From NCBI GenBank assembly GCA_965220055.1, contig CBDCPE010000004.1:3628962-3692961 (forward strand): a stretch of 64,000 nt of DNA. Direction: 5' to 3'. Origin of the DNA: Dehalococcoidia bacterium (GTDB lineage: Bacteria; Chloroflexota; Dehalococcoidia; Lucifugimonadales; UBA3495). The notes beneath the pieces are model-generated. The model searched no databases. It had not been told where the DNA came from and was given only the letters and a program-made list of their open reading frames with translations. Of the stretch, positions 19,343 through 64,000 are shown piece after piece; within the stretch, counting starts at the first letter, position 1; every line of letters begins with the position of its first letter. A program made the translations under genes and the position numbers.

Positions 19343-20041
19343 CAGGGTGTTGAAAATCGCGGCGGCGTGGCCGGGTGGCAGGATGCGGACCATCTCCAGT
19401 GGGGAGGGTTCACGATGCGGGGCACGGCAGCGCGGCAGGCCACCATGCTCACGGCGGTCACGCCGGACGCTCTGGTTCCCGAAGGTCACCCCATTCGGCG
19501 TATCAAGCCCATGGTGGATAGGGCCCATGGTTGACAGGGCCCTGACCCAGTTGTCCCCGACCTTCAACCGGATGTACGCCGACCACGGTCGAGCGTCGAT
19601 ACCGCCGGAGCATCGATACCTCCGGAGCACCTCCTGAAAGCCGGCCTGCTGATGGCGCTGTTTTCGGTGCGGAGCGCCCGGCATGAGGGGTACCGCTTGA
19701 GCCAGCGGGCACGCAAACGGATTGAGGCGGTCTTCGGCTGGGTGAAGACGGTGGGCGGCGGTAGGAAGTTACGGTACTGCGGGGTCGCCCGCAATCGGCT
19801 GTGGACGGAATTGACCCTAGCGAGCTACAACCCGGTGCGGCTGGCCAAATTGACGGCGGTGGCGGCGTAGAGCAAGGGACAGGTCTTTCTGGATTGCCGC
19901 TGACAACGCCTGGCCGCTCGGAAATCGGCCTCCTGGCAGCGTCAACTAACCCTTTTCAGCCGTGAACCGTGCGCACATGGGCGGCGCGGACGCGACAGAA
20001 AATCCCTACGCGGCCATCACGCTACCCATTTCAACAGCCTG
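19343..20041 (+). mobile_element. Internally deleted IS5/IS1182-superfamily derivative, copy 2
   Basis: Collinear with 4651-5303 and has the same IRs. It carries two extra imperfect tandem duplications (19509-19540, 19596-19629). Confidence 0.7.
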
Positions 20042-20056
20042 CTAAATTGACGGGAA

Positions 20057-20506
20057 CTATTGCCCACCGAACGAATCGGAGATTGCTGAGGGTAAATCCC
20101 CTTCCCGGAGTAGGGCGATATCCTGATTACGGAAGTTCACTATTTGCTGAGGATCGGAAAAGTATTCGAATCTTGCTCGTATTGGGTCCAATGTCATCCC
20201 CACCAATTCGAAAGAATCGCTGGGCAGGACAGCATCGGGTTCGTAATCTCTATGCCGAATGTGAGCAACAGAGATCAAAGCCTCAGGAGCGATGTCGAAC
20301 TGGCAGGAAATCTGAACAGCCAAACAACCAGCCCAATCTGACACGTTTGGGCCAGGATTGTTAGCTAATTCCGTCTGCAGCGGTCTTGAGCAGGATGCGC
20401 GCGCCCGATCGATCACCCGAACGGAGGGCTGGCCACTACGGATCAACCGCTCCAGTTGCTCCCGATCTTCCGACGACAACCACACCCGGTATTTCTCTGC
20501 AACCAT
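20057..20506 (-). pseudogene. IS630-family transposase N-terminal HTH remnant fused to unrelated sequence
   Basis: YRVWLSSEDREQLERLIRSGQPSVRVIDRAR matches the IS630 N-terminal HTH. The continuation (RARILLKTAADGIS..) is only readable by frame changes. The 3' part is unassigned. Confidence 0.4.
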
Positions 20507-20629
20507 GGTTGCCGCACCTCCCGCACCGCGGTTTGCCGGACGGCGTAGCAGCCATGGCCAGTGTCGCGCTTTGTCTGCCCGTACAAGATCAACTCAATAC
20601 CAGGGAACCTCTGAATAAGTCTCCCTTCC

Positions 20630-20760
20630 CGTCGGCGGGCCGTCATTCTGGCGGAAGCCGGAATCTACATTCCTGGGTTTGTGGATTCCGGCATGCACCG
20701 GAAGGACGTTGTTACGAGCTTCCCGGAATCTTCACGTCGTTCCCGGAATCGTCACGAAGG
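20630..20760. repeat. Cluster of GATTCCGG/CCGGAATC motifs (REP/MITE-like)
   Basis: ccggaatc or gattccgg occurs four times, including the direct repeat ttcccggaatc.tcacg twice. Lies just downstream of the thiolase stop. Confidence 0.4.
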
Positions 20761-22068
20761 GTACTTGCCCAGCATCAGCCAACCACCGCTGCTGGGCGTG
20801 GTGAAGGCGCACAGGGCAGTCTCCGCCCGCACGGTTACCTGGCGGTCGCCGGCGGTGCCCCGGAGTTGCTCGATGCTGTCGGTGTACATGGCGGTGCGGG
20901 TGCGACCGTTGCCCAGGTTGCCGCCGCTGGAACTGAAGGGGTTGGGGCCCTTGACGCTGATGTCGCCGGCGTAAAAGGCAAGGGCGTCGCCCCGCTCGAC
21001 CCCGTGCCACTGGAACCCCTCCAGGAAGAACTGGGTCATTATGGAGTAGCCGTCGTAGGGGTTGAAGATGTCCACGTCGGCGGGACCCAGACCGGCGCCT
21101 TCGTACATGCGGGCGGCCTGCCGGTCGGTCCACATCTCCACTTCGTCCAGGTCGGGCTGGGTGGTTCGGAACGGGAAGTTGTGCTGGGAATGGTTGAGCA
21201 CGTACACGGGCTGGGAATCCATATCCTGCGCCCGCTCTGCGGTGGTGAACAGGTAGGCCGCCGAGGCGTTGACGGGACGGTCGCAGTCCCAGATGCGTAG
21301 CGGATTCAAGATTGGCCGGGAACCTATGTAGTCTTCTACCGATATGGGTTCGATGTTGTGGGTGGCGTTGTACCCCCAGGGGGTGAGGATCCCGTTCTTG
21401 TGCTGGTTGATGACAAAGGGGGCAAGGTCCTCATGTTCGCCGCCGTACCTCATCAAGTACTGGCGGTGGGGAAAGATGTTGATGAAATCGTTGCCGCCGT
21501 GGTTGCCCCAGGGCACGGTCCACTGGCGTGCGCCCCGGGCGTAGTCGTCGGCATTCTCGCCGCCCCGCCGGTAGCGGCCTTCCATGTTGCCCGTGGGATA
21601 GATGACCAGGCAGGTGGAGCAAACACCGTCGCCCACGGCCTGGGAGGCCATGCCCACCATCTCGCCGATGGTCGGCACCCCGGTGGGAGCAAATTTGACG
21701 TTCTCGAAGCCCATGGTGTTGATGAGCCACTGCGCGTTGATCAGCGTCAGGCCGTACTCCGAATCGTATGGCGGGTCGAAGTAGGGCCGGGGAGCCCACT
21801 GGGAGGTGGTCCCGCCGCTGCCGCCAGCGATGTGGCTGTCACAGCAGACGATGCCGTCCACCTGATCAATGGTGACTCCGGCCTGCTCCATGGCCTTTTC
21901 GCAGGCCATGATGGTGTAAGCGCCCAGGGATTCATCCAGCTTCGTTTCGTCCCACCGCCGGTCCACCGGCGAATGGCCGTAGCCGACGACGGCTACCTCG
22001 CCCCGGTGTTCCCACACCCCCAGGCCGTCCCGGTCCCTGCGCCACTGGAAATTATTGCTGCTGGTCAT
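20752..22068 (-). CDS. Thiolase-fold protein (SCP-x / lipid-transfer-protein-like)
   Basis: 438 aa with overall thiolase-like layout (VAVVGYG..., GxG-rich C-terminus NPFSSSGGNLGNG). Adjacent to a DUF35 OB-fold/Zn-ribbon partner, which is the classic pairing. Confidence 0.7.
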   Translation of the reverse strand: MTSSNNFQWRRDRDGLGVWEHRGEVAVVGYGHSPVDRRWDETKLDESLGAYTIMACEKAMEQAGVTIDQVDGIVCCDSHIAGGSGGTTSQWAPRPYFDPPYDSEYGLTLINAQWLINTMGFENVKFAPTGVPTIGEMVGMASQAVGDGVCSTCLVIYPTGNMEGRYRRGGENADDYARGARQWTVPWGNHGGNDFINIFPHRQYLMRYGGEHEDLAPFVINQHKNGILTPWGYNATHNIEPISVEDYIGSRPILNPLRIWDCDRPVNASAAYLFTTAERAQDMDSQPVYVLNHSQHNFPFRTTQPDLDEVEMWTDRQAARMYEGAGLGPADVDIFNPYDGYSIMTQFFLEGFQWHGVERGDALAFYAGDISVKGPNPFSSSGGNLGNGRTRTAMYTDSIEQLRGTAGDRQVTVRAETALCAFTTPSSGGWLMLGKYPS

Positions 22069-22164
22069 AGTCCGTCCTTTTGTCGCCTATCCACTGATCG
22101 CCTATCCATCGATCGCGTATTCGTTATCGCGTTTCCATGAATCAGCGCGAAGTTTCACCAATGG

Positions 22165-22575
22165 TTATTCCACCACCATCCACTCGTGTATCAACTGGCC
22201 GGGAGCCACTTCCTCGAAGGTAACCTCCACGGCCGCGCCCACCGGTACTTCGTAGGCCGGGACGCCCGGCAGGTTGGAGTAGAAGTTCACAGTGGGGTCC
22301 TGGTCCAGCGTCACCAGGGCAAGATTGTAGGGCTGGTCGAGCATCCGACGGTTCAGGCGGCCGTCCTCGATGACGATGTAGGCGGCGATGTGGCCCTTGC
22401 CTACCACCTCTTTCCACTCCAGCCCATCGGCGGACCCGCACGCTTGGCAAGCCACCTGGGGCGGGTACTGGAGCTTGTCGCAGGCGGTGCAGTTCTGGAG
22501 GACCAGGCGCTGTTCGTTCACCGCGTCCCAGAAAGGCTGGCTGAGTTCATCGGGTACCGGGATTATCTTTGGCAT
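22165..22575 (-). CDS. DUF35 OB-fold / zinc-ribbon acyl-CoA-associated protein
   Basis: FWDAVNEQRLVLQNCTACDKLQYPPQVACQACGS is a CxxC...CxxC rubredoxin-like ribbon, followed by an OB-fold-like C-terminus. Start chosen at MPKIIPV. Confidence 0.75.
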   Translation of the reverse strand: MPKIIPVPDELSQPFWDAVNEQRLVLQNCTACDKLQYPPQVACQACGSADGLEWKEVVGKGHIAAYIVIEDGRLNRRMLDQPYNLALVTLDQDPTVNFYSNLPGVPAYEVPVGAAVEVTFEEVAPGQLIHEWMVVE

Positions 22576-22598
22576 TGCTTGTCTCCAACCATTTCTTT

Positions 22599-22638
22599 TC
22601 ACGCAACTCCGTTACAGATCACGCAACTCCGTTACAGA
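22599..22638. repeat. Perfect 20-bp tandem duplication (tcacgcaactccgttacaga x2)
   Basis: Read directly from the sequence. Confidence 0.9.
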
Positions 22639-23188
22639 ACCGGGTATGCGGGCGGCTGCGGCCCGTCCCATGCTTGCGGGTCGGAACCGTATTGGTTCGG
22701 ACCCGCTTGGCCCGTTTGACCAGCCAAATCAGCATCCATGCAATCGAACCTGCGCATATCGCCAACCCCACAAGGAAGGCAGCAAAAGCTAGGCCGAGGA
22801 TTAGTGATAAGTTGCCAGAGTTGCTACCACCGGAAAATACAAAAGTCATGTACCACAGGCCAATTGCCCCAGATACCAACAGGATAGCCCCCAATACTCC
22901 CTTTACTATCCGGAGCAATTGCCACCCGCCGCTCTTGCCTATGTCGTGCGAGCGGCGGGCAACCACCGCAAGGCTGGGGATCGGGATCGCCAACCCAGAT
23001 ATAAATTGAAAGGGAGTGTAGACATCCAAATCGGCCAGGGAGCCTATGGAAATGTCCACACCACTGAGCATCAAACTGACAATATTGGTAGCCAGCACTC
23101 ACCATCAGTACTCGGCCCGGGTGGCCCGCCCGCTGAAGACGGCATACTTGCGAATACAAGCCCTGGCCGAGTCCTGCAGGGTCATCAT
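22619..23188 (-). pseudogene. DUF805-family membrane protein with two in-frame TGA codons
   Basis: Reads MMTLQDSARACIRKYAVFSGRATRAEY-TGA-W-TGA-VLATNIV... and later ARRSHDIGKSGGWQLL (DUF805 RRLHD.G.SGWW block). The stops are at 23105-23107 and 23099-23101. Confidence 0.65.
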
Positions 23189-23351
23189 GGGCTTGCCCGG
23201 GGGATATCGCCTGGCTGCATTGGTTACTCCTGGGCGGATTTGCGTGCTGGCCATTCTACCCGTAAAACGGCGCTTCATCCACTTGGGACTGGCCGCTGGC
23301 GTCCGGGCCCTTCTCCCCTGCCTGCCAACGGGCGCCGTTTTCCTAACCATC

Positions 23352-24570
23352 CTCTGAACAAGTCCGTGGTGATGTGGCATAGTCAAGCTGGAGAGCCTAA
23401 TGCTGACCGGGGATGAGGTTGTATGGACCAGGCAAGCTTTGCTGACTTGGAATACCAGGGCAAGAGGCGCAAGACCCGCCGGGAAGTGTTCTTGGAGCGG
23501 ATGGACGGCCTGATTCCCTGGAAGTTGCTGGAGGACCGCATCCGTCCCTTCTACCCAAAGGCCGGAAGGGGGCGCCATCCATATCCTCTGTCCGCCATGT
23601 TGAGAACACACTGTGTCCAGCTTTTCTACAATTTGAGCGACCCCGGCAGCGACCCCGTCATGGAGGACCTGCTCTACGAGTCCGAGCCGGTCCGGCGGTT
23701 CGTGGGGTTGAGGCTCTCAGGCCCCCTGCCCGACGAGACCACCATCCTCAACTTTCGTCATCTCTTGGAAAAGAGCAGCCTGTGCCAGGGCCTGCTGGAG
23801 GAAATCAACGCCCACCTGGAATCCCAGGGCCTGAAACTGCGGGAGGGAACCATCGTGGACGCCACCATCATCGAGGCGCCGTCCTCCACCAAGAACCGGG
23901 CTGTGGAGCGGGACCCTGAGATGCATCAGACCAAGAAGGGGAACCGGTGGCATTTCGGTATGAAGGCGCACATCGGAGTGGACTCGGAGACTGGCATAGT
24001 CCACAGCATGAGCGCGACGGCGGCCAACGTGCACGATGTTACCGAGACGCACAATCTGCTGCACGGGGGCGAAACGGTGGTGTGGGGCGACGCTGGGTAT
24101 CAGGGAGTGGGGAGGAGAGAGGATAATCTGGGGCTTTTGGTGGAATGGCGGGTGGCGATGCGTCCGGGGCGTCGTCGGAAGTTGGCGCCTGGGAGCAGGG
24201 AGGCGCTGGCGGAGCAGGTGAAGGCACAGGTGAGAGCCAAGGTGGAGCACCCCTTCCTGAGGCTGAAGCGGCTGTTCGGGTACGCCAAGGTACGCTACCG
24301 GGGTCTGGCAAAGAACGCGGAGCGCCTGGCGCTGCTGTTCGGGCTGGGCAACCTGCTGACGGCGGAGGGTCTACTGTCGGGGTAGTGCGCCCGTCGCAAG
24401 CCCCAGCCGGCCCTATGGCCCGCGCCGGACTCCAACGGCCCCGCCAGGGGCGAAACGCAAGGAGCGAAACGCAAGGAGCCGGATGCCGGACCGCAACGCC
24501 CAGACGCCAGTTCTCGCCCCTTCGCTATCCCAATAAACCCAATGCAGCCCAAACCGGCTTTGTTCAGAGC
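23352..24570 (+). mobile_element. IS5-family insertion sequence (approximate ends)
   Basis: Terminal IR core ctctgaacaa (23352...) pairs with ttgttcagag (...24570). The flanks contain ctaa/ctag, consistent with an IS5-type YTAR target. Confidence 0.65.
23423..24385 (+). CDS. IS5-family DDE transposase (InsH-like)
   Basis: Contains SDP..ED.LYES...RRF, TILNFRHLLE, DATIIEAPSSTKN, HFGMKAHIGVD, GDAGYQG and VEHPF...K..FGY.KVRYRGL.KN. Confidence 0.9.
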   Translation: MDQASFADLEYQGKRRKTRREVFLERMDGLIPWKLLEDRIRPFYPKAGRGRHPYPLSAMLRTHCVQLFYNLSDPGSDPVMEDLLYESEPVRRFVGLRLSGPLPDETTILNFRHLLEKSSLCQGLLEEINAHLESQGLKLREGTIVDATIIEAPSSTKNRAVERDPEMHQTKKGNRWHFGMKAHIGVDSETGIVHSMSATAANVHDVTETHNLLHGGETVVWGDAGYQGVGRREDNLGLLVEWRVAMRPGRRRKLAPGSREALAEQVKAQVRAKVEHPFLRLKRLFGYAKVRYRGLAKNAERLALLFGLGNLLTAEGLLSG

Positions 24571-24876
24571 GTCCCTAGAATCTGCCTGATCCCGACCATG
24601 CCCGAGGAGACCCTGAAGGCTGTTGAGACTTGGCGAGGGCCGTTGTCGCTCAGCAGCCTGGTTCGGTCAGGCACGGGACCGTGATCCATCCGGTCTTGTC
24701 CACCGCGCCCTGGACGACCTTGGTCCTGGGCCACCTCGGTCCTGGCCTATCGCTGCTCTGCGCGCAACCACCCTGGGGATGTACAATGCGGCACTTGGCG
24801 GATGTTCCAGGGCGCACCGACCACGTAAGTAAGAGCAGCGGCACGGGAACCTGAAACGGCAAAACTGGTGAAATAG

Positions 24877-26106
24877 TTGGCCCAGATTCTGGTCATTGGA
24901 CGCAGGCTCCAGACCTTTCGCGCGCTGCGGCACCGCGATTTCCGCTGGTTCTGGATCGGCGCGAACGCCCAGGCATTGGCCAGGGGGATGCAGTTCCTGA
25001 TCCTGGGCTGGTTGGTATTGGAACTGACCGATTCCGCCTCCCGCATGGGGTTCATGATTTTCCTCTACGGGGTGCCCACGGTGGGGTTCGTACTGTTCGG
25101 CGGCACCTTCGCCGACCGGTTCGACCGACGCGGACTGCTGATGCTGACCCAGGCCCTGGTGGGACTCCTGGTCTTTGGACTGGCCGTGTTGGAGACCGCA
25201 GGGCTGGTTGCCCTGTGGCACATCTACGCGGCGGCTTTCGTCCTCGGCACCCTCCAAGCCATCAACACCCCGGCCCGGCTGGCCATAGTCCGCGACCTGG
25301 TGGACCGAGATGACCTGATGAACGCCGTCGTTCTGAACTCGGCGATCATGAACTCGGGACGAATCCTAGGCCCGGCCCTGGCCGGAGGCGTCATCGAACT
25401 GGCCGGAACAACCCCGGCGCTGTACCTGGCCGCCGGATGCTTTTGCGTGGGCACGGTAACGCTGCTCATGGTCCGGCGAGTGCCAGTGCCGGCCCGGGAC
25501 CGGCGCTCGACCATCCTGTCCGAACTGTGGGGCGGGCTGCGGTACTGCTGGTCGAACCCGGTCACTTTCACCGTCATCGGCATCGGGTTCGCCTTCGGTT
25601 TCTTCGCAATGCCCTATGCCCAGTTGCTGCCCGCTTTCGCCAAGCTGGTGCTGGACACAGGAGCCGGCGGAGCCGGGCTGCTGATCACCGGGGCGGGCAT
25701 TGGGTCCCTGTCCGGCACGATCATCATGGCATCATTGGGCAACTCGCCCCATAAGAACCGACTGCTGCTGGCCTGCATCTTCCTTTTCGGCATAGCCCTT
25801 TTCTGCCTGGCCTGGTCACAGTGGTTCTGGCTGTCTTGGGCGATATTGTTTCTGGTCGGGATGGGCAGCATAGTGCCAATGGGGACGACCGTGTTACAAC
25901 TCTCCGTGCCAACGGAGTTCCAGGGCAGAGTGATGAGCGTTTGGTACATTTCCGCCGGGTTCATGTTCATCGGCTCCTATCCCATGACGCTGGTTGCAGA
26001 GTACATAAGCTGGACCGCGGCCTTCGCCGGCGGAGCCGCCATTTACCTGACGATCGCGTTGGTGCTGGGGGTCTGGCGTCCGACACTGCGCCGCCTGCGC
26101 GTGTAG
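24877..26106 (+). CDS. MFS transporter (DUF894/EntS-like subfamily)
   Basis: N-terminus FRALRHRDFRWFWIGANAQALARGMQ with 12-TM-like hydrophobicity. TTG start in the ORF track, so the start is uncertain. Confidence 0.75.
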   Translation: MAQILVIGRRLQTFRALRHRDFRWFWIGANAQALARGMQFLILGWLVLELTDSASRMGFMIFLYGVPTVGFVLFGGTFADRFDRRGLLMLTQALVGLLVFGLAVLETAGLVALWHIYAAAFVLGTLQAINTPARLAIVRDLVDRDDLMNAVVLNSAIMNSGRILGPALAGGVIELAGTTPALYLAAGCFCVGTVTLLMVRRVPVPARDRRSTILSELWGGLRYCWSNPVTFTVIGIGFAFGFFAMPYAQLLPAFAKLVLDTGAGGAGLLITGAGIGSLSGTIIMASLGNSPHKNRLLLACIFLFGIALFCLAWSQWFWLSWAILFLVGMGSIVPMGTTVLQLSVPTEFQGRVMSVWYISAGFMFIGSYPMTLVAEYISWTAAFAGGAAIYLTIALVLGVWRPTLRRLRV

Positions 26107-26168
26107 CTCGGTGCGCGGTCGCCAGTTGCCCTTCACAATGCCGCTGCGACGACTAATACGACACTCGG

Positions 26169-26218
26169 CAGCCTATGAGACTCGACAGCCTATGAGACTC
26201 GACAGCCTATGAGACTCG
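26169..26218. repeat. 17-bp tandem repeat x3 (cagcctatgagactcga)
   Basis: Read directly from the sequence. Intergenic. Confidence 0.9.
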
Positions 26219-26595
26219 CCCTGATACCCAAAGCAAATCCGCTGAAACGCGGTGCCCAGAGGCCGGTTTGTACGAGACTGTCTGCGGCTTCTCAACTGCC
26301 ATGGAGACGACCGACCGCCTTCACCGGTTCCCACGAACCATGGGCCGGGGAGCCGCGGCTACGGCTTCCCGAAACATGTCACGGCGTTGTCCAGCAGGAT
26401 CTTCGGCAGCAGGTCTTCCAGGGCATCCCAATCCAATCTTGGCCGCCATGCCCGCCGGTCAGCCTGGGCTGTTCGCCCTGCTGCTGTGGCGCCCGGCGCA
26501 GCGCAAGCTGAGGCTTTGGAACCGGAATGGCACTAGCTGGGCTTTGCGTGCGCTGCGCCCACCATTGGTCCAGGTCGGGCTTTCCAGCCGAAGTT

Positions 26596-27480: not shown

Positions 27481-27549
27481 CGAACGCCCTCCTTAATATC
27501 TGATGAGGCCCATGGTATCAGGTTGCTCCGGTGGCTACGTGAAGTCCTC

Positions 27550-27680
27550 ACGCGTACCCAGTTTGTCATTGCGAGGAGCCAAGCGACGCGGCAATCCCGC
27601 CACCTGGACGATGTCTCCTCCGCCAACGAGATTGCCGCGCTTTGCTCGCAATGACAGTTTGGACACAAGTAGGTACGCGT
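27550..27680. repeat. 131-bp MITE-like hairpin element (acgcgtaccc ... gtcattgcgag ... ctcgcaatgac ... gggtacgcgt)
   Basis: Long inverted-repeat arms. A same-length copy lies at 44393-44523 with the central spacer in the opposite orientation, and a half copy lies near 27721-27775. Confidence 0.75.
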
Positions 27681-27963
27681 CAGACGTGAAGTCTCGGTGA
27701 CGTAGCGATTATTCTCGCGGCGATGAGATTGCCGCGCTTCACTCGCGATGACAGTTGTCCGACATTGGGTACGCATGAGCTGTCTGGGGCACTCTAAAAT
27801 TTCGATAGACGAATTCATGCGCGTCGTTACGATGATATTACGAAATACGTCTCCAAATTGACTTTGCAATCCAGTCGAATTACACTTCGGCCACCTTAAG
27901 TTGCCCATGTCGTCAGGCAGGGCAGGATGAATTCGTAGCACATCGCCGTTGGGAGGTAACTAT

Positions 27964-51668: not shown

Positions 51669-53468
51669 ATGACCACGCAAATCACCAACGAAGACATCGT
51701 CCAACTGTTCAACAACATGGCGGCCATGTTGGAGATCAAGGGCGACACCGTCTTCAAGATTCGCGCCTACCAGCGCGCTGCCAACACCATCGAACAGATC
51801 AGTTGGTCATTGGCCGCAGCGGCTGCCGCCGGCGACGACCTGAAGCAAATCCCAGGTGTCGGCAAGGCCATCAGCGAAAAGGTCCAGGAGTACGTGGCTA
51901 CCGGGCATGTTGCCGCATACGACCGTCTCGCTGAGGAACTGCCTCCCAATGTCCTGGACTTGCTTGAAGTTCCCGGCATGGGCCCCAAGACGGTGAAGGC
52001 CGCCGTGGACGAACTCGGTATCGGCTCTGTCACCGAGCTTGAGCAGGCCGCGTTGGACGGGAGGCTCTCCCAGTTGCCGCGCATGGGCAAACGCTCTGCC
52101 GCAAACATCCTGCGCCACATCCAGGCCCAGCGCTCCCGCTCCGACCGCACGCCCTTGGGCATCGCTTCCGAGACCTGCGCTGCGGTTACAGCCCAGTTGT
52201 TCGACGCCTGCCCTGGTTTGGTGAGCCTCACCCCGGCCGGCTCGCTGCGCCGCTGGGAGGAGACCATCGGAGACCTCGATCTCATCGCCGTTTCGGACAA
52301 CTCGGCCGAAACTGGGCCAGCTCTCGCCGCCTTGTCGTCCGTCCGTGAGATCCTGGTCCAGGGAGACTCGAAGACATCAGTGGTCGTCGACCCCGGCATC
52401 CAGATCGACCTGCGGATCGGCGAGCCGGACGCCATGGGCGCAATGCTCCAGTACTTCACCGGCAGCCAGCAGCACAACATCCGCCTCCGGGATTACGCCA
52501 ATCGACGCGGGCTGTCCCTCAACGAATACGGCATCACCGTCATCGAAAGCGGCGAAACCGAACGTTTCCCGGATGAGGAGTCCTTCTACGGTCGCCTCGA
52601 TCTGCCCTGGATACCGCCGGAACTCCGTCGCGGCTCCGACGAACTGGACGCCGCCCGCGCGGGCAATCTTCCCAACCTGGTTACCGAGACCGACCTCCGC
52701 GGCGATCTGCACCTCCACAGCGACTGGAGCGATGGCAAGTTCCCCCTGGAAGAGATGGTTGCCGCCGTCGCCGCCATGGGCTACGAGTACATGGCCCTCA
52801 CCGACCATTCCCAAGGCCTCGGCGTCGCCAATGGGTTGACTCCCGACCGTCTCGCCCGCCAGATCGAAATCCTGAAGCGTCTCCAGTCGCGGTACGAAAT
52901 GACCATCCTCTGCGGTTCCGAGGTGGACATCCGAGCCGACGGCGCCATGGACTTCCCCGACGACGTCCTGAGCATGCTGGATTGGGTTATCGCCTCCGTT
53001 CACAACGCCATGAGCCAGGACCGTGAGACTATGACCCGGCGCATCGCCAGCGCCATGGAGAACGCCTACGTAACCGTCATCGGCCACGCCTCAACCCGGC
53101 TGCTCGGTCGGCGGGACCCGGTGGAGTTCGATATCGAGGCCCTGCTGAAGACCGCCCGCGACACCGGCACTGCCATGGAGATTAACGCCGCTCCGGAGCG
53201 TCTCGACCTCAAGGACACCCATGCGGCTCGCGCCCGCGAGTGGGGCGTCCCGTTGGTCATCAACACCGACTCTCACCACGTCGACGGCTTGACGAACCGC
53301 ACCTTCGGTGTGGCCGTGGCCCGTCGTGCTTGGTGCGGACCCGAGCATATCCTCAACACCTACCCGTCGAACGAGTTTCTCGCGTGGCTCCGTGCCCCCA
53401 AAGGGCAGCGGCCGGACCGCTTCGACGCTATGGTAGGTGCACGCAGTGCCGGGGCATCCCGACCGTGA
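51669..53468 (+). CDS. PolX-family DNA polymerase with C-terminal PHP domain
   Basis: FKIRAYQRAANTIE and helix-hairpin-helix blocks (IPGVGKAI, VPGMGPKT). GDLDL is the nucleotidyl-transferase motif. The PHP motifs are DLHLHSDWSDG and TDSH. The start is uncertain (51636-51669). Confidence 0.85.
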   Translation: MTTQITNEDIVQLFNNMAAMLEIKGDTVFKIRAYQRAANTIEQISWSLAAAAAAGDDLKQIPGVGKAISEKVQEYVATGHVAAYDRLAEELPPNVLDLLEVPGMGPKTVKAAVDELGIGSVTELEQAALDGRLSQLPRMGKRSAANILRHIQAQRSRSDRTPLGIASETCAAVTAQLFDACPGLVSLTPAGSLRRWEETIGDLDLIAVSDNSAETGPALAALSSVREILVQGDSKTSVVVDPGIQIDLRIGEPDAMGAMLQYFTGSQQHNIRLRDYANRRGLSLNEYGITVIESGETERFPDEESFYGRLDLPWIPPELRRGSDELDAARAGNLPNLVTETDLRGDLHLHSDWSDGKFPLEEMVAAVAAMGYEYMALTDHSQGLGVANGLTPDRLARQIEILKRLQSRYEMTILCGSEVDIRADGAMDFPDDVLSMLDWVIASVHNAMSQDRETMTRRIASAMENAYVTVIGHASTRLLGRRDPVEFDIEALLKTARDTGTAMEINAAPERLDLKDTHAARAREWGVPLVINTDSHHVDGLTNRTFGVAVARRAWCGPEHILNTYPSNEFLAWLRAPKGQRPDRFDAMVGARSAGASRP

Positions 53469-54275: not shown

Positions 54276-54306
54276 AAACATTTTCGCCGCTGTGCCGCGT
54301 CCGCGG

Positions 54307-55407: not shown

Positions 55408-55703
55408 CAGTTAAGCTGCTCCTTACTCTTGCTTACGGCCAGTTGGCGTGGCCGCATAGGTCGAGCAGGTACTTCGTTCTCGCTTGGATCACTTTCCCCA
55501 CAATTCGCCTGCCTAATAATACTTATACCGCAAGCAAATTGCAACCGCTAAATTCGAGAAACGCTGCATGCCCCATCTCGCCGCCTACTCGACCAACAAC
55601 GGACCCATAGAGACTGTTCGAGCCACGCAGGGCAATCGCAATTCAGCATAGTCTAAAAGTCTGGCTAATATTGGTGCGGAGATGAAGTTGTGAGAGGTGC
55701 GCG

Positions 55704-56538
55704 GTGGCGATGGACAATGTACCGCTTTCGATTATGGAACGCTTCGAAATACTGGAAGACCCGCGAACTGGACATGCCAGAAGGCACGAGTTGCGGGACA
55801 TCATCGTCATCACCCTTTGCGCCGTCATCTGCGGCGCCGACAACTGGGTGGAGATTGAGGAGTTCGGCAAGGCCAAGGAGGAGTGGTTCCGCCGGTTCCT
55901 GAAACTGCCCAACGGGATACCGTCCCACGACACCTTCGGGAGGGTGTTCAGGCTGCTGGACCCAGAGCAGTTCTCAGCCTGCTTCATGGACTGGGTACGT
56001 ATGGACTGGGTACGTTCGGTGAGTGAACTGGCCCATGGCGAGGTGGTGGCGATAGATGGCAAGACCCTGCGGCGTTGTCATGACCGAGCCAACGGGCGAG
56101 GTCCGCTGCACAGGGTAAGCGCCTGGGCCACGGAGCACCGCATGGTGCTGGGGCAGACCCGCACCGAGGCTCACTCCAATGAGATCACGGCGATACCGGA
56201 ACTGCTGAAGGTGCTGGAACTGAAAGGGTGCCTGGTAACGATGCGATCTTTGACCAATCACGCCATGGGCTGCCAGAAGAACATCGCCCGTCAGGTGGTG
56301 CGAGGGGGCGCGGAGCCACCGGAGCATCGAGAACAGCCTGCACGGGGTGTTGGACGTGGCCTTCGACGAGGACCACAGTCGTGTGAGGACGGACCATCCC
56401 GACCAGAACCTGGCGGTGATGCGACACCTGACACTCAACCTTCTCAGGCAGGAACGCAGTGCTAAAGTCGGCATCAAAGCGAAACGCAAAAAGGCCGGAT
56501 GGTACTTCGATTACCTGCTCAAAGTCCTATCCCAATGA
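55704..56538 (+). pseudogene. ISAs1-family transposase remnant (internal deletion, in-frame 15-bp duplication)
   Basis: FEILEDPRTGHARRHELRDIIVITLCAVICGADNW...VAIDGKTLR, then a jump to SIENSLH.VLDVAFDEDHSRVRTDH..NLAVMRH..LNLL. MDWVR is duplicated (55985-56014). Confidence 0.8.
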
Positions 56539-56575
56539 AATGCGATTGCCCCCGCACGCCTCCAGGGTCTTTCGA

Positions 56576-57755
56576 TTATTGGAGTGGAGCGCCGATCAAA
56601 GCTAGCGGACGTGATGGGTGGACGGCGAAACGGCGTAAGGCAGCCGCGATATTGGGTTCTCCAGCCAATCGGAACAGACTGACGGTCAGGTTGCGCCGGG
56701 CCGCCATGACCTGGGGAGCCGAACCGGTGCGTACCTGAGAACGGTCTTCGTCGAAGGTAACGTCTCTTACCCAGTGCACTCGGTTCTCGATGCCCCAGTG
56801 TCCTCGCCACAAGGCAAGGAGCCTTTGGTGGCTGGCTTCCTGGCGCGGCAGGCTTCCTGGCGCGGCAGGCTGGTTACGGCATAGGCCAGTTCTCGACGGG
56901 TGGAGTTCTTGCGGCGGACGACGCGCTCCAGTCGGCATACCCGAGACAGGTGCGGCCAATCACTGTAGCCCACCAGAACAGCTGAAACCCCCAGCCGTCG
57001 CTGCTCCACCCGACCACCGTGCTGGTCAACTTGCATCGCTTGGGGTTCTTCCTCCGGTTCCGTCTCCCAAATGGCCGTGATGTCAGGTAACAAGGTGGGC
57101 TGGTTACCCTTCACCGCGAAGAAGTAGTGCCCCCTTGCGCCACCACCCGCTGACATACCACCCGCTGGGTGAACTGGGCATCGCCAGTTGCCACCAGACC
57201 CTTCAGGTCCAACTGCCCCAGCAGACCCGCTACCGCATCCAGCTCATTCTTCTGCTCCCCCACCGCCTGCTGCCCCACCACGACCCCAGCCTGATGAGCA
57301 TATGCCGCCACCAGATGTACCCCAGGCAACCGATCGCCGTGAATGCCCCGCAATGCTTTCCCATCAATGGCCACCGCCTCACCTTCCGACAAACCACGCG
57401 CTTGCAGCCATTGCCCCAACGCCTGCTCGAAGGCCTCCCGATCCAATCTGCTGAACACCTGATGCCGCGTGGACACGCACGGCGTCCGCTCCCGAGTGAA
57501 CCTCAAAGCCTGGGACACTTCCCGGCCCTGGTCCCGTCCCCACTGGCTGATGGCGTACAGACGGGGCGCTCCGCACCGCATGGCGCACACTGCCAATCCT
57601 AAAATCGCCCCCAACGGATGTCGCTTCCCGTGGGCACTGCGCGGGTCCGGCAACCGGCCCAACATCTCGATCAGCGACGAACCAATTTCCGGTTCCTGCC
57701 CTTGTCCCATCACGCACCCCCAAATCTGTGGATGCCCTGACCCTTTATCCCTCAC
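56576..57755 (-). pseudogene. Second ISAs1-family transposase remnant (two frameshifts)
   Basis: Readable in three frames: LPDPRSAHGKRHPL...VAIDGKALRG; then YFFAVKGNQPTL; then HWGIENRVHWVRDVTFDEDRSQVR. One frameshift coincides with the 17-bp duplication at 56833-56866. Confidence 0.8.
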
Positions 57756-57822
57756 CCTCCTTCCTCCAAGCTCGCCCTTGCCCCAGTTTCTTCAATAATC
57801 GAAAAGCCCTGGCACGCCTCGG

Positions 57823-59270
57823 GTAACAGTTCAGAATTGAGGGGAAACGAGCAACTGAAGGCAGGCGTCGAGAGGGTTTAGACCTCTGGCGCGCCAGGTG
57901 CCGAAGAGAGATGCCAGCGCCATCTTGCTTTCGGTGCCCTGCTCCGAACGAGTGCCGCCGCTGACTTTGCGGCTGATTACCACATGGCGCAGGCTGCGCT
58001 CGGCGGCGTTGTTGTCTGGCGGCACGTCCGGTTCGGCCACAAAGACGAAGAGTTCCTTGATGTGGCGCTCGATGCGTCGGCACAGCCTGGCTGGTATTGC
58101 CGACGGGTTATCCAGGAAGGGCTGGCAGATGGTCAGCAGGCTGCGCTCCAATGCCAGTTGGACAACCCGCCGTCGCTGTTGCTCGGGATGGTGGAAGGCT
58201 TTGGCCGCGGCATAGAGTTGGTGGATTGCCCCGGCCCACTGCACCAGTGGGGCGTCCTTTGGGTGGAGGGCTACCAGGTCGTGGATGTCCCGTAGCAGGT
58301 GGGCCCAGCACCGCTGCTTGGGGCCATCATAATGGTGGTAGGCAGCGTAGCAATCGCTGACCAATACTCCGGAGAAAGCATCGCTCAGCGCCTGGTCCAC
58401 GACTGTTTTGCCCCGACCCCGCCGCGGGAAGTAGCGTTCGCGGGAAGTAGCGTTCGGTGGGGGTGCTGAAAGTCCACACCTAGCCGTTGGCCCCGCTCTG
58501 ACGCCAGCCGGTTTCGTCGGCGTGGACCACCGGGCTGGCGCGGATGCGGTCCAGGATCGCGGCCACTGCCGGTTGGGCCCGCTGCGCCGTGCGCTGGATG
58601 GCGCTCACGATGGCCCCCACGCTGCGGCGCAACTGATGCACGGTGTCCAGATACCACTGGACGCTACGGATGGGCAGCCGCCCCTCTTCCCGCAGCGTGG
58701 CGATCAGGCTGAGCAGGTTGACGCCGCGGCGCTGCTGGCCCAGGACCACGCCGTCCAGTTCCGCCGGAGGTGTGCAGCGCCGTCGGCACGCCGGGCAAGT
58801 CCGAGCAATGTAGACCTGCTCGGTGACTTGCACCGGAACCACCGGCAGCTCGATGACTTCCCGAGTGCGCTGGGTCCAACCGCCGGACCGGTGGGCGCCG
58901 CAATCGGGACAGTTCTCCATCACGTGCTCCACCCGGTGGGTCGGTGTCATGCGCGGGCGGGCGAAGCCGTGGCGTCGCTGCTTGCGGGGCCCCGGCTGCG
59001 CTGGGGGCTTCCGGGCCGATTTCGCCTTGAGGCCGGGCATTCGGAGCGGGTCGCCCGGTTTCGCCGGGCCTTCCAGTTCGGCAATCCGCCGCTGCAACCG
59101 CTCAATCACCGCCTGTAACTCGGCGATGATGGCAATCAGCACATCGCGGCCGACGGTGGTGAGGTCAACTTCAGTATCCATGCCCGGTATATGACATAAC
59201 CACCGCCACCCGTGCCAGCGTTCGGCAACCCGCCTTCGGCCAATTCACCTCACCAAGTCTGAACTGTTAC
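57823..59270 (-). mobile_element. IS66-family element, divergent copy B. Its transposase is split (57831-58400 and 58480-59181) by a 16-bp tandem duplication
   Basis: IRs gtaacagttcagaattg and caagtctgaactgttac. Flanked by cgcctcgg at 57815-57822 and 59271-59278. The duplication cgggaagtagcgttcg x2 is at 58425-58456. Confidence 0.85.
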
Positions 59271-59278
59271 CGCCTCGG

Positions 59279-60710
59279 GTAACAGTTCAGAGTTGAGGGG
59301 AAGTGAGCAGTTGACGGCAGGCAGCGATGGGGTTGAGAGCTTGTGCTCGCCAGGTGCCGAAGATTGAGGCCAGCGTCATCTTGGTGTCGGTGCCCTGCGC
59401 TGAGCGGGTGCCCCCGCTGACCTTGCGGCTGACCACCAAATGGCGCAGGCTGCGCTCGGCGGCATTGTTGTCCGGCGGCACTTCCGGTTGGGCCACGAAG
59501 ACGAAGAGTTCCTTGATGTGCTTCTCCATGCGTCGGCACAGTCTGGCCGGGACGGCCGACGGGTCGTCCCGGAATGGACGGCAGAGGGCCAGCAGTCGCC
59601 TTTCCAGGGTCAGTTGGGCGGTGCGGCGTGGTGGTTCTGAAGGGTGGGTAAAGGTCGTGGCCTGACGGTAGAGTTGGTGGACGGCGTCAGCCCACTGGGC
59701 CAGTGATCTATCATCAGGGTAGAGGACACGCAGGTCGTGGATGTCCCGCAGCAGGTGAGCCCAGCAGCGTTGCTTGGGAGCGTCGTAATGGTGGTAGGCG
59801 GCATAGAAGTCGCTGACCAGCACGCCAGCAAACTCCTTGCCCAGGACTTCGTCGACCACGGCCTTGCCCCGACCACGCCGCAGGAAGTACCGCTGGTCGG
59901 AGGTGCTGAAAGTCCACACGTAGCCGTTGTGTCCGTCTTCACGCCAGCCGGTCTCATCGGCGTGGACCACTGGGCTGCCGCGGACGCGCTCCAGTATGCC
60001 CGCCAGTTCGGTCTGCGCTTTGCCCGCCACGGTGCGTGTGGCATTTACGATGGCGCCCAGGCTGAGGCGCAGCCCGTGCACGGTGTCCAGGTACCATTGG
60101 ATGGTGCGTAACGGCAGCCTGGCCTCCTCCCGCAGGGCTGCAATCAGGCTGATGACATTGACCCCCAGACGCTGCTTGCCCATCACCACGCCGTCCAGTT
60201 GTGCTTTGGGAACACAGCAGCGTCGGCACTGTGGACAGGTGCGGGCCAGGTAAACGTGCTCGGTTACCTGCGCCGGAACCTGGGGCAGGTCGATGACCTC
60301 CCGAGTGCGCTGGGCCCAGCCTCCGGACAAGTGGGTCCCGCAGTCGGGACACTGCTCCACCACATGCTCCACTCGGTGGGTGGGCGTCATGCGGGATCGG
60401 GCAAAGCCGTGAAACCGGGGTTTGCGTGGCTCCTTGGGACGTGCTGGCTCCCGGTCCGCTTTGGGCTTCAGACCGGGCATCCGGCGGGAGCTTTGGGGTT
60501 TGGCTTGGCCTTCCAACTGGGCAATCCGCTTCTCCAGCCGCTCGATGATGGCTTGCTGGCGGACTATGATGCCAATCAGGACATCCCGGTCAGCTGCCCT
60601 GAGATTGATTTCGGTATCCATCCCAGTTATATGACATAACCACCGCCCCCAAAGCCAGCCACCCGCAAACCAAGTTCGCCCAATTCACCCCACCAACTCT
60701 GAACAGTTAC
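59279..60710 (-). mobile_element. IS66-family element, copy A2 (1432 bp, near-identical to A1)
   Basis: Same IRs as A1, offset exactly 13060 bp. TSD cgcctcgg at 59271-59278 and 60711-60718. I noticed a single difference (Gly/Ala codon in YDGPKQ/YDAPKQ). Confidence 0.9.
59287..60621 (-). CDS. IS66-family transposase (copy A2)
   Basis: 444 aa. Identical to 46227-47561 except for one residue. Confidence 0.9.
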   Translation of the reverse strand: MDTEINLRAADRDVLIGIIVRQQAIIERLEKRIAQLEGQAKPQSSRRMPGLKPKADREPARPKEPRKPRFHGFARSRMTPTHRVEHVVEQCPDCGTHLSGGWAQRTREVIDLPQVPAQVTEHVYLARTCPQCRRCCVPKAQLDGVVMGKQRLGVNVISLIAALREEARLPLRTIQWYLDTVHGLRLSLGAIVNATRTVAGKAQTELAGILERVRGSPVVHADETGWREDGHNGYVWTFSTSDQRYFLRRGRGKAVVDEVLGKEFAGVLVSDFYAAYHHYDAPKQRCWAHLLRDIHDLRVLYPDDRSLAQWADAVHQLYRQATTFTHPSEPPRRTAQLTLERRLLALCRPFRDDPSAVPARLCRRMEKHIKELFVFVAQPEVPPDNNAAERSLRHLVVSRKVSGGTRSAQGTDTKMTLASIFGTWRAQALNPIAACRQLLTSPQL

Positions 60711-60767
60711 CGCCTCGGAACTCAATTGACACGAATGGTGCCTCCGTCTATGATTAAAGTACGTTTA

Positions 60768-60841
60768 GCCGAGGTAGCTCAGCCTGGTAGAGCACGGCAC
60801 TGAAAATGCCGGTGTCGGTGGTTCGAATCCGCCCCTCGGCA
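60768..60841 (+). tRNA. tRNA-Phe (GAA)
   Basis: Hand-folded cloverleaf. Acceptor GCCGAGG/CCTCGGC, D arm GCTC/GAGC, anticodon stem CGGCA/TGCCG with loop CTGAAAA, T arm GGTGG/CCGCC with TTCGAAT. Discriminator A; CCA is not encoded. Confidence 0.9.
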
Positions 60842-60980
60842 CCTCTTTCTCAATAAGGGTCGGCTGCAAACTCACAAACGGTATCAATAAGAGGGGTATC
60901 GGCAGGATCGTCCCTATTTTGCTGGACAAACTCCCGGCAACGCACAGTAAGAGGCGGTAATAAACAGCACTCGATGACAT

Positions 60981-61017
60981 GATCGCGCCCGGAAACTCCG
61001 GGCGCGATCTTATTGTT
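60981..61017 (+). terminator. Rho-independent terminator-like hairpin
   Basis: Perfect 13-bp stem gatcgcgcccgga-aac-tccgggcgcgatc followed by ttattgtt. Confidence 0.6.
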
Positions 61018-61402
61018 GCGGTAGCCGAGGATCACTCACATCTACAATGCCCCGCATGGCTCGGTACCGATATAGGCCGACGACCGGGACCGCGTCGACC
61101 TCCCTTCAGGTCCGTGGACGAACAGAGAATTGCATCCCAGTTCCAACCCGGCAACGTGATATATTCCCGGGTGCGGCGGCGGCGGGACAATGTCCCGCAG
61201 GAAGATGAGGTGTAAGTGGTCAACGTCGCTCCGTGTCGATCGCCAATGCCTACCGGATGATGCAGGACACCAGCCAGGCAATCAGCGTAGAACACCGGCG
61301 CCCGGACGGCTATACCTTGGACGTTCTGGATTTAACCGTATCGCACCCATCAGATCACGCCAAATCCAGGACCATCACGCTGTTCTGACGGGAGCCGACC
61401 GC

Positions 61403-62250
61403 ATGAGCCAGCAGCCCCAAGGGGTTCTGATCGCCATCGACTGGGAGAACATCCGACGCGGCGCACAGCTCTACCACCGCAACATCAGGCCGGCCGACCT
61501 GTGCCGGGCCATGCAGGATGTGGGCGGCATTTTCGGTGAGGTGGCAGGCGGCAAGGCCTTCGGCGACTGGTCGCTCCGGCCCGAGGACGGGCGGGAGTTC
61601 ACCGAGCACGACATCGTCCTGTATCACGCTCCCCGCACCAGCGCCGGCAAGGACCGGTCCGACCCGGCCATTCTGTTGGAAGTCTACGAGTGGATCAGGG
61701 ACCGTGAGGACTGCGGCACGGTGATCCTGGGTTCCGGCGACGCCGACTACCAGGCCCTGGTGGACCGGGCCCGGGTCCACGGGCGACGCATCGTGCTGTG
61801 CGCTTTCAGCCGGTCGGTGTCTCGTGACATGCTGGCTGCGGCTCCGCTCTTCCCGCTTGAGGCCGAGCTGGGTATCCAGTTGGCGGAACATGGCGACGTC
61901 AACCTGGACCTCCCCGCGGTTCTGGAGGCGCACGACGAGGAGATCGACGATGTCCTGGAACGGTTCGTCCGGGAGATGTACAACCTGGAAGGCAGGCTGA
62001 GCTTGTCGGCTACAGCATGCTATGCAACCAGTGGATGCCGGATTGGGGATTGGCCTGGAACGAGCACGAGTGCAGGCGGCTGGTCGACGAGTACCAGGAG
62101 GATGGGATCGTGGAACGCCACGAGGTGGTCAACCGCAACAACCCCGATTGGCCCACGTCGGCGGTGCGGCTAATCCGGACCAACGACACGGTGCGCCAGG
62201 CGCTGGGGTTCAGCGACGTGACCATAACAAACCCGGTCCCGGCACGCTGA
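61403..62250 (+). pseudogene. NYN/LabA-like (DUF88) domain protein, frameshifted near 61990-62015
   Basis: VLIAIDWENIRRGA...GKAFGDW...ILGSGDADYQALV...GRRIVLCAF is the NYN pattern. The C-terminal domain continues in another frame (62017-62250). GGGAG SD. This could be an assembly error. Confidence 0.6.
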
Positions 62251-62429
62251 TAATGCCGCCGCCATTGACACCGGCATTCCTTATTGTTGTCGATCAGGTG
62301 CGGTTTTGCATAGGTAGGTAGTCACCGTTATCTCCCCAGTGGATGCTCCCAACGGGGCAGCACCCTTCTGATTTCGCGTCCCATTTCTGTGCTCCTTTTG
62401 GGTGTGGGTTCGGCTGCTGGGATTTGTTA

Positions 62430-63542
62430 CTAAGCTTGGTTGTTGGCCGCCCGTGCCGGTCGGTTCCTGTGAACGGACGAGACCTCGTGCATGCAGGCCA
62501 GGATCTCGCGGTAGGACCGCACTGGGCCGGTCTCGTGGTAGGGGATCCCCGTTAGCGGCAGAACTCCTTGATGATGGGACGGGCCCGGCCGAGCTGGTTG
62601 CGCGGGCATCATGGTGAACAGGTGGTGCTCGATTTGGTAGTTGAGCCCGCCGTACAGGAAGTCGACCACCGGGTTGGGCCTGACGTTGCGGCTGGTCAGC
62701 ACTTGGGTGCGCACGAAGTCCAGCGGGTTGTCGTCATCCAGGATCAGCATGCCCTTGTGGTTCGGCGCGAATACCGTGCCGTAGTAGATCACGAATATCG
62801 CTTGGTGGACCAGCGCGAAGGCCAGTGCCTGCCAGGGGCCCAGCGCGTAGACGAGCAAGCTGCAGTACAGCGCGGTATGCAGGGCCATGAGCATGGCTTC
62901 GATCGGCCAGCTGCCGGGGCGGCGCCTTCCGGCCAGGAACAGTGTGCTAGCCCATCGCATGCTCATGGATTCCATGGACAGGATCGGTATGAAGTAGAAG
63001 GCTCGTTAGGCGGTCGTCCGTCTGACGATGCCCCTCAGGCGTTTGGCTCGTTCTTTGGAGAAGGCCAGCACCGGTATGAGCGTGTGAGGGTCTTCGTACA
63101 GGTTGTTGGGAGTGCGGTGATGCTGGTTGTGCGTGGTTATCCACCACGACTGGCTGACGTTGATGAGCGCGCTGGCTGCGTAGCCGATGAGCCGGTTACC
63201 GCGGGCCGACCGGCAGATGGCCAGGTGTCCGGCGTCGTGGCCGATGTAGCCGATCTGTCCGAACACGAAAGCCAGGAACGCCGCGTCCGCCAGCTGGAAT
63301 CACGTGTTGTCCACGGTCAGCAAGACCGTGAGGCTCAGGGCCAGCATGGCGTTCGTAGACGCCATCTTTAGCGTGTAGTAGCCCAGCTGGCGCTCCAGCA
63401 GGCCCTGTTCGCGTATCCGCCGGGGCAGCTCCGCAAAGTCGGCGACCTCCGTGCTATTTTTGCTCTTATGCCGGATGGCGTCCGCTGTTTCTTTCTGCAG
63501 GTGTCCCGCGTCAACTAAATATGCCGAATCGCATTGCCTCAT
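62430..63542 (-). pseudogene. Membrane fatty-acid desaturase with in-frame TGA and TAA plus a compensated double frameshift
   Basis: The His boxes HDAGH, HNQHH and QIEHH are all in one frame but interrupted by TGA (63300-63302) and TAA (63006-63008). Around 62560-62620 the expected MPRNQLGRARPIIKEFCR is only readable in another frame. Confidence 0.8.
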
Positions 63543-63590
63543 TAAAAACGTTACCCACGCCGAATGGTTGCCTCAACTAGTGTTATGTAT

Positions 63591-64000
63591 CTAAAGTACA
63601 CCTGCAAAAACTGGCGACCTTGGCCAGGATCTGGTCGGCGGTCTTGGTCCAGATAAAGGGCTTGGGGTTTTCGTTGGTAAGGTCAAGATATTGGTAAGGT
63701 CAAGATAGCGGTAGATGGCGGCTTCCAGTGCCCCGCTGCTCTGATGCACCCCTCGCCGTAGTTGCTGCTCGGTCAGCATCCCGAACCACCGCTCCACCAG
63801 GTTCAGCCAGGATGCGCTGGTCGGCGTGAAGTGCAGGTGGAACCGTGGCCGCTTGGCTAACCAGTTCCGGATCAGTGTCGTCTGGTGGGTGGCGTAGTTG
63901 TCCACGATGAGATGGACGTCCCGGTCAAGGGGCACTTCGGCCTCAATGGTATCGAGGAACTTGCGGAACTCCACGGCCCGGTGGCGTCGGTGGCATTGGC
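63591..64000 (-). pseudogene. IS630-family transposase C-terminal part, frameshifted by a 17-bp tandem duplication; runs off the window
   Basis: DNYATHQT...HLHFTPTSASWLNLVERWF is the DDE/D35E region. After the duplication at 63674-63707, the proper C-terminus NENPKPFIWTKTADQILAKV is in another frame. Confidence 0.8.

Follow-up and report, generated by a model that had tools for sequence, protein, structure and literature searches.

Short tandem duplications of 14–19 bp in a SAR202-cluster Dehalococcoidia genome, and a breakpoint mark that points to topoisomerase I

The birth of tandem repeats from non-repeated DNA is an open question, and it is explicitly called so in work on the topA gene of Escherichia coli (PMC6954433). 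In that study (Bachar et al. 2020, Nucleic Acids Research) the topA R168C (and R35P) mutator gave rise to repeat-independent, de novo tandem duplications of 2–19 bp; five events of 15–17 bp were found in the evolved clone with topA R168C, and the other evolved clone, with topA R35P, had one further event, of 15 bp in lptG. The authors found no motif, left open whether the enzyme acts directly or indirectly, and proposed that it gives birth to new tandem repeats. Duplications linked to topoisomerase II have been described for yeast top2-F1025Y,R1128G and for human TOP2A K743N, the latter as the signature ID_TOP2A (bioRxiv 10.1101/2020.05.03.075358; PMC8795545). Bacterial and archaeal topoisomerase I selects a C located 4 nt upstream of the cut by means of R169, R173 and Y177 (PMC3467081), and the motif of the E. 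coli enzyme in vivo is TCNTT↓A (the arrow marks the cut), the C being "strictly required for cleavage" (PMC9352719). According to a single-chain model, full-length E. coli topoisomerase I covers an estimated 18 bases or more of single-stranded DNA on the upstream side of the cut (PMC4678816). Here we describe short tandem duplications in a 64-kb stretch of DNA (the window, G000:C4:3628962-3692961) and throughout the genome to which it belongs, that of an uncultured member of the Dehalococcoidia (G000; 5.05 Mb in four contigs, 62% G+C, 95.6% complete), and we propose that their breakpoints are probably set by the single type IA topoisomerase, TopA, of this organism.

A first-pass annotation of the window had described nine short head-to-tail duplications and took them to suggest a specific mutational process of narrow size range, for which it proposed a genome-wide scan for a size peak at 14–20 bp. 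Tandem Repeats Finder (TRF) located all nine where they had been described, seven of them perfect and two (19507-19542 and 19591-19629) slightly diverged. Every perfect head-to-tail duplication with a period of 6–60 bp was then counted over the whole genome, and a sharp peak at 14–19 bp was obtained, in support of such a process. The number of loci per period was 13 at 10 bp, 2 at 11, 10 at 12, 7 at 13, 48 at 14, 32 at 15, 44 at 16, 25 at 17, 23 at 18, 21 at 19, 3 at 20 and 1 at 21 bp; the peak at 14–19 bp holds 193 loci, as against 2–13 loci per period at 10–13 bp and 1–5 from 20 bp upward. When loci were collapsed wherever one duplication rides in several copies of an insertion sequence (IS), the peak comprised 95 distinct units, distributed as 14, 22, 20, 17, 18 and 4 over the periods from 14 to 19 bp, with 5 units at 13 bp and 3 at 20 bp. 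With imperfect copies included (TRF), periods that are not multiples of three gave 75 loci at 14 bp, 67 at 16, 54 at 17 and 32 at 19, versus 28 at 13, 6 at 22 and 3 at 23 bp. Since these periods peak as well, protein-coding periodicity is not the cause. The copy number of a given unit is variable: one 14-bp unit ranges from 2 to 7 copies between IS copies, and arrays of up to 29 units occur. The largest minisatellite of this size class lies at G000:C3:97731-98629, where perfect arrays of the 16-bp unit CACCCAGAGCATCATC, with 29, 15 and 6 copies, lie close to one another.

The evidence that connects these duplications to a topoisomerase comes from the exact-edge events, that is, duplications without microhomology at the junction, of which 31 were available from the genome itself, where the mark described below was first seen, and 16 from its relatives, where it was then tested. 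A C is present at position -4 of the left breakpoint in 37 of the 47 pooled events (p = 2e-11), and the fourth-last base of the unit, which stands at -4 of both the junction and the right breakpoint, is C in 32 of 47 (p = 2e-7). Position -4 stands out clearly from all others in these events, and T at -5 is enriched at both breakpoints (20/47 each). The mirror image, G at +4 and A at +5, is also present and is weaker, as expected because the events fall on either strand. After joint de-duplication, C(-4) was found on the same strand at both breakpoints in 36 of 45 events, the null being 0.184 as determined from 200,000 random genome positions (p = 5e-19). This double mark is carried by 14 of 15 events in repeated DNA of the genome, by 11 of 15 in its unique DNA and by 11 of 15 in the relatives. 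As a control, chance repeats of 7–11 bp analyzed with the same code stay at the null (0.09–0.24), and periods of at least 13 bp reach about 0.8.

The two breakpoints are not marked with equal strictness. Of the 45 events, 43 have the flank C(-4) on one or both strands, and a two-strand mixture estimate places the frequency of C(-4) at about 100% for the flank site and about 82% for the site at the end of the unit. When the events are oriented by the -4 C alone, the first site has the logo W(-5) C C N N ↓ C and the second T(-5) C A N N ↓ G; at -5, 33 of 37 events have T or A at the first site, and 17 of 37 have T at the second.

TopA is encoded by the sole type IA topoisomerase gene of the genome (one PF01131 match), which lies outside the window at G000:C4:2629511-2631976 and specifies a protein of 821 residues. 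Its alignment with structures of E. coli TopA shows that the residues corresponding to R35, G116, R168, R169, D172, R173, Y177, the catalytic Y319 and M320 are all conserved; R168 and R35 are both kept, in the segments NAQQARR and GHVRDLP, respectively. Judged from this alignment, the cytosine pocket of the enzyme is intact. That both breakpoints of dozens of fresh events carry the site rule of the enzyme is an argument that it acts directly, and the defined sites allow the mechanism to be tested. We therefore think it probable, on the strength of the mark and by analogy with the E. coli mutator, that the duplications are scars of a lineage-wide process in which TopA sets the breakpoints.

The following sequence of steps would account for the mark. 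TopA would cut single-stranded DNA after CNNN and remain on the 5' phosphate, shielding that end from flap nucleases, while the freed 3'-OH would escape and be extended over 13–19 nt by a polymerase, with displacement of the old strand. The PolX-family polymerase encoded in the window (51669-53468, plus strand) could be the copying enzyme. The 5' end of the old strand, capped by protein, would resist trimming, and once the new 3' end again presented a C at -4, TopA would capture it and reseal it to the displaced 5' end. The leftover loop of 13–19 nt would be fixed as a tandem duplication by the next replication, and later slippage or recombination would expand some units into the long arrays mentioned above. 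That C(-4) is stricter in the flank (the cut site) than at the end of the unit (the reseal site) fits this order of cutting and resealing. As for the ruler that would restrict the extension to 13–19 nt, one matching dimension is the single-stranded DNA span of at least 18 bases of the E. coli enzyme (PMC4678816).

A number of observations weigh against a role of TopA, or at least against its being the whole explanation. The link to the enzyme rests on the sequence mark and on analogy, and the steps of cutting, extension and resealing, as well as the ruler, are ones that we infer. About 64% of the two-copy events have junction microhomology, and among those with 1–4 nt of it an offset compatible with the mark exists in 27 of 44, against about 0.47 expected, which is a weak excess; ordinary slippage may have made part of the spectrum, and it is surely at work in the later expansion of units. 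A class of 13–19 bp deletions bearing the mark was not found, and the non-tandem indels of 12–16 bp among IS copies carry it in 5 of 14 cases, which is not significant. There is no bias between coding and template strands (12 vs 15), although TopA works with transcription. No bias between leading and lagging strands was seen either (8 vs 6), in a test weakened by the irregular GC skew of the main contig. Along the 4.09 Mb of this contig (C4), the cumulative skew is lowest near 0.20 Mb and highest near 1.59 Mb, so that either the replichores are very unequal or the contig is rearranged or mis-joined. The last held-out samples added only two unambiguous events, both without the full mark. The held-out genome G015 yielded four events, none with exact edges, and the flanks of TopA genes one exact event without the full mark. 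The held-out metagenome contigs around IS66 relatives were short and distant, and exact-protein look-ups mostly resampled the same contigs. In the E. coli topA mutants themselves the mark is missing, a compatible offset being present in at most 1 of 7 galK events (4–13 bp) and in none of the 4 locatable events of 15–16 bp (MG1655 sequence); our guess is that R168, which adjoins the cytosine pocket, might explain this. Finally, at the residues checked, TopA has no lesion that would explain why this lineage is so prone to duplication.

How widespread are the duplications? Loci around the PolX gene place the genome among uncultured SAR202-cluster Dehalococcoidia, and several of the close relatives presumably derive from sponges, as we take their sample names to denote sponge metagenome bins. 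Perfect duplications of 14–19 bp were counted in evenly spaced 400-kb samples of the relatives' genomes. Within the genus, 14 events were found in G009, 10 in G013, 6 in G018 and 4 in G015; within the order, 4 were found in G022 and 1 each in G029 and G024. In the surroundings of the PolX gene within the genus, metagenome-assembled genomes (MAGs) from long reads had 15 events in 650 kb and Illumina MAGs (SPAdes or MEGAHIT) had 4 in 325 kb. No duplication of 13 bp or more was present in the 372 kb examined from other phyla. The duplications are genus-wide and fade at the order level. The C-terminus of TopA (genes at L200-L229) also varies in this group, with four zinc ribbons (a tail of about 180 residues) in the genus and in G022 and three (about 118 residues) in ten other order-level relatives. 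Duplication density follows the four/three split among the sampled genomes, which is a correlation among kin and nothing more.

A comparison with related strains, also proposed in the first-pass annotation, was made with assemblies of near-identical strains from three other European Nucleotide Archive (ENA) samples, reached via exact-protein look-ups. The 20-bp duplication at 22599-22638 is also present in a strain of 94.7% identity, where the second copy has one later substitution, and the 14-bp duplication at 24450-24479 is found in four independent strain assemblies, one of them merely 94.7% identical. The array at 19507-19542 is identical in two sister-strain assemblies. At 19591-19629 the two 17-bp copies, slightly diverged in the window, are still identical in two sister strains of 99.7% identity, so the window strain must have acquired a later point mutation; a single-copy allele of this unit exists elsewhere in its own genome, and a sister strain keeps the perfect duplication. 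At 26163-26218 the array measures 56 bp here, and in two 99.7%-identical strains it measures 39 bp, one unit less, which indicates a recent change in copy number. The comparison thus yielded shared duplications, later point mutations and one change in copy number, and it follows that the events are real, heritable, of varied age and still changing.

Could the duplications nevertheless be artefacts of long-read metagenome assembly or sequencing? Many of the genomes of the genus are indeed long-read MAGs under similar accession series, and yet the same class of duplication occurs in the SPAdes and MEGAHIT Illumina MAGs, and specific duplications recur in the assemblies of the three other samples; one of these duplications shows a later point mutation, and another differs in copy number. 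Older copies have diverged, events in coding DNA are enriched for in-frame lengths, and an assembly error would not bear a biochemical cleavage motif; we regard an artefact as scarcely credible. Somewhat less remote, but still very improbable, is that the duplications are footprints of an excised element with a long, variable target-site duplication, such as a casposon-like or IS1634-like element. Casposons make target duplications of 14–15 bp, and the strong enrichment of the duplications in DNA rich in mobile elements would suit this origin. However, the lengths are spread over 13–19 bp instead of being fixed, the junctions are exact with no residual bases of an element between the copies, and events are found in core genes and intergenic DNA of many species. 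No occupied allele was met in the strain comparisons, the genome not having been searched for casposases or IS1634-type elements, and casposase or IS1634-type integrases have no known preference for CNNN↓ sites.

The two remaining explanations had both been put forward in the first-pass annotation. Ordinary slippage of replication, or template switching between short direct repeats, would require no topoisomerase, and the size range would then reflect the footprint of a polymerase or clamp. It is favored by the expansion and contraction of arrays among IS copies and strains and by an excess of microhomology, since chance would leave 63 of the 86 distinct two-copy events without microhomology at the junction, and only 31 (36%) are in fact without it; in 45 events it amounts to at least 2 nt, as against about 6 expected. 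Those same 31 events, which have no microhomology at all, are what simple slippage leaves unexplained, together with the breakpoint mark: it predicts neither a sharp window of 13/14–19 bp with almost nothing at 10–12 bp nor a C at precisely position -4 of the two breakpoints on the same strand. We consider slippage as the sole cause unlikely, though it is the alternative that we take most seriously. In the other scheme, nicks on opposite strands 14–19 bp apart would produce a staggered double-strand break that is filled in, for example by the PolX polymerase of the window, and rejoined. Its geometry gives exact tandem duplications without microhomology, precedents exist in topoisomerase II and in paired nicks (plants; discussion in PMC6954433), and the weaker mirror-image G(+4) signal might be counted in its favor. 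But the motifs in the two flanks should then lie on opposite strands, an arrangement that fits 23 of 45 events, whereas pairing on the same strand fits 36 of 45, which speaks against a staggered break that is filled and rejoined. In addition, no Ku was found in this 95.6%-complete genome. PolX is encoded just as well by order-level relatives and members of other phyla in which duplications are few or absent, and is therefore not sufficient as a cause on its own. Fill-in repair of staggered breaks accordingly appears improbable to us, decidedly more so than slippage.

Three candidate defects that might predispose a genome to duplication were also considered and rejected. A deficiency in flap nuclease, as in yeast rad27, does not apply, as the genome has a PolA that includes the 5'-nuclease domain and, separately from it, a FEN-like gene; MutS is present, which discounts a loss of mismatch repair; and a lesion of TopA of the R168C-like or "self-poisoning" type was dismissed in view of the conserved R35, G116, R168 and M320.

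The duplications are concentrated in mobile DNA, as the first-pass annotation had suspected. Repeated DNA (at least 300 bp at 85% identity or more) amounts to 1.02 Mb, or about 20% of the genome (about 0.26 Mb when non-redundant), a very heavy IS load; contig C2 consists of repeated DNA to 47%. This repeated fifth contains 140 of the 193 loci, and the density of distinct events lies between 45 per Mb (all repeated DNA) and 175 per Mb (non-redundant repeated DNA), versus 12 per Mb in unique DNA. Is this concentration a property of the process or of selection? Of the 11 events that lie in unique DNA and are flanked by coding signal on either side, 8 have a length divisible by three; elsewhere the proportion is 14 of 38, near the neutral one third. 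In the conserved neighborhood of PolX, periods of 15, 18 and 21 bp predominate. A test of whether removing one copy yields a longer open frame was crude and of limited use in this GC-rich genome. The alternative idea of the annotation, that such events are simply tolerated where they silence transposases, provides the best account of the concentration: they pile up in IS and transposase genes because frameshifts are purged from genes that are needed and tolerated in those of IS elements. The pattern mostly fits a non-specific mutational input filtered by relaxed selection, to which an IS-specific factor of a few-fold may be added.

The claim that the nine duplications of the window mostly disable transposase genes holds for some of them. 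It is borne out by the IS66-family transposase at 57834-59244 (minus strand), which is split exactly at a perfect 16-bp duplication (x2.1, 58423-58456) into an N-terminal part at 58483-59244, with zf-IS66 and positions 5–78 of DDE_Tnp_IS66, and a C-terminal part at 57834-58604, with positions 107–283 of the same family; an intact paralogue with an open frame of 465 codons lies next to it at 59290-60684 (minus strand). The duplication of the split copy is carried at nine genomic loci, with 2.9 copies at three of them, so that either it is older than the spread of the element or the element was moved in trans. The claim also stands for the IS630-type (DDE_3) transposase ORF (open reading frame) at 63594-63998, which extends past the end of the window and whose frame stops shortly after a perfect 17-bp duplication (x2, 63674-63707, minus strand) near its 3' end. 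The edges of this duplication are unambiguous, each breakpoint having C(-4) on the minus strand, and its unit is present at three genomic loci. The claim does not hold for the perfect 15-bp duplication (x2, 55986-56015, minus strand) in the ISAs1-type transposase ORF, which is in frame and likewise has unambiguous edges, with a minus-strand C(-4) at either breakpoint, nor for the perfect 14-bp duplication (x2.1, 24450-24479), which lies 65 nt past the stop codon of an intact IS5-type transposase ORF (23417-24382) and offers no offset compatible with C(-4). Two further duplications are intergenic, namely the perfect 20-bp duplication at 22599-22638 (x2, plus strand), whose edges are unambiguous and whose two breakpoints show C(-4) on the plus strand, and the 17-bp array (x3.3) at 26163-26218. 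A perfect 17-bp duplication (x2.2, 56834-56871) is located in degraded IS DNA downstream of the ISAs1 ORF; it has 4 nt of junction microhomology, one offset of which fits the C(-4) mark, and its unit is found at three genomic loci. The two diverged arrays are a 16-bp duplication (x2.2, 19507-19542) in an IS derivative, which represents an older event, and a 17-bp duplication (x2.3, 19591-19629).

Several other features were noted in passing. At 62430-63572 of the window (minus strand), an FA_desaturase-like ORF (62433-63005, Pfam FA_desaturase positions 107–251) is followed by short ORFs at 63006-63299 and 63300-63572 that abut in other frames, and the region resembles a gene broken by frameshifts. 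A 90-bp unit (x2.9, 98% matches) with an internal 22-bp sub-repeat occupies 6467-6731 of the window and belongs to a size class distinct from that of the duplications studied here. Elsewhere in the genome, at G000:C4:3301988-3302193, a 60-bp unit composed of the CRISPR-like repeat CTATCCCCGCGCGTGCGGGGGAACCC and a spacer is present as a perfect array (x3.4), one spacer apparently occurring three times running. Repeats of 24–25 bp and 43 bp around the motif GTCATTGCGAGCG (GTCATTCCG in relatives) were seen at C1:104727-104844, C3:306014-306228 and C4:3615240-3616492 of G000; repeats of this type are also found at loci L072, L086, L106 and L152 of the relatives, and may constitute a REP-like dispersed family of this order.

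In this organism, the process helps to account for broken transposases and other dispensable genes, and for the entry of short peptide repeats into proteins. It also provides a signature that can be searched for in any genome, namely duplications of 13–19 bp with a C at -4 of both breakpoints. A more general proposal would be that new tandem repeats are naturally produced by wild-type topoisomerase I, which would cut at CNNN↓ and reseal the copied 3' end at the next CNNN, with a length window given by the grip of the enzyme on single-stranded DNA. We put this forward tentatively and think it rather doubtful in so broad a form. Were it true, the same mark would be expected in other duplication-prone lineages, and the birth of bacterial minisatellites would be explained. 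In the open literature searched we found no natural duplication signature of a type IA topoisomerase and no CNNN↓ scar in genomes, and no report of the short-duplication phenomenon in SAR202 or in sponge symbionts.

Among the systems described so far, the E. coli topA mutator is the closest. Its duplications are likewise arranged head to tail, reach 19 bp and need no pre-existing repeat, as is also the case for the 31 of 86 events here that are without microhomology. The E. coli case, however, is that of a laboratory point mutant with impaired relaxation, while the phenomenon described here occurs naturally and throughout a genus, with R168 and R35 both kept in the TopA of this genome. The spectra differ too, that of E. 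coli being broad (2–19 bp, with many events at 8–10 bp), in contrast to the near absence of events at 10–12 bp in this genome. The breakpoint mark resembles the known cleavage rule of type IA enzymes, which likewise has a C located 4 nt 5' of the break and a T at -5, and the residues R169, D172, R173 and Y177 are conserved in this TopA. The E. coli motif has T, T and A at -2, -1 and +1, whereas the first site here, W-C-C-N-N↓C, shows a preference for C at -3 and +1; a difference between species is a plausible reason for this mismatch. The known motif, moreover, describes transient cleavage during relaxation, and the mark described here sits at the edges of duplications in genomes. In the scheme that we propose, the duplications have in common with the TOP2-linked events that the topoisomerase stays bound to the 5' end and that the 3'-OH it leaves is copied, which yields short, exact duplications with lengths that would reflect the geometry of the enzyme. 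Those events are of 2–4 bp (a 4-nt stagger) and involve a double-strand break and end joining; here the length is 13–19 bp, the mark is on one strand and no Ku was found. Slippage-type variable-number tandem repeats (VNTRs) and minisatellites of bacteria are similar in that copy number varies among IS copies and strains here as well. The literature on VNTRs covers their expansion and contraction, not their birth, and in this lineage the birth step has a size window and a breakpoint motif of its own. The reading best supported by our results is a duplication process defined by topoisomerase I, a new natural variant of the phenomenon known from the E. coli mutants, with an explicit and testable signature at the breakpoints.

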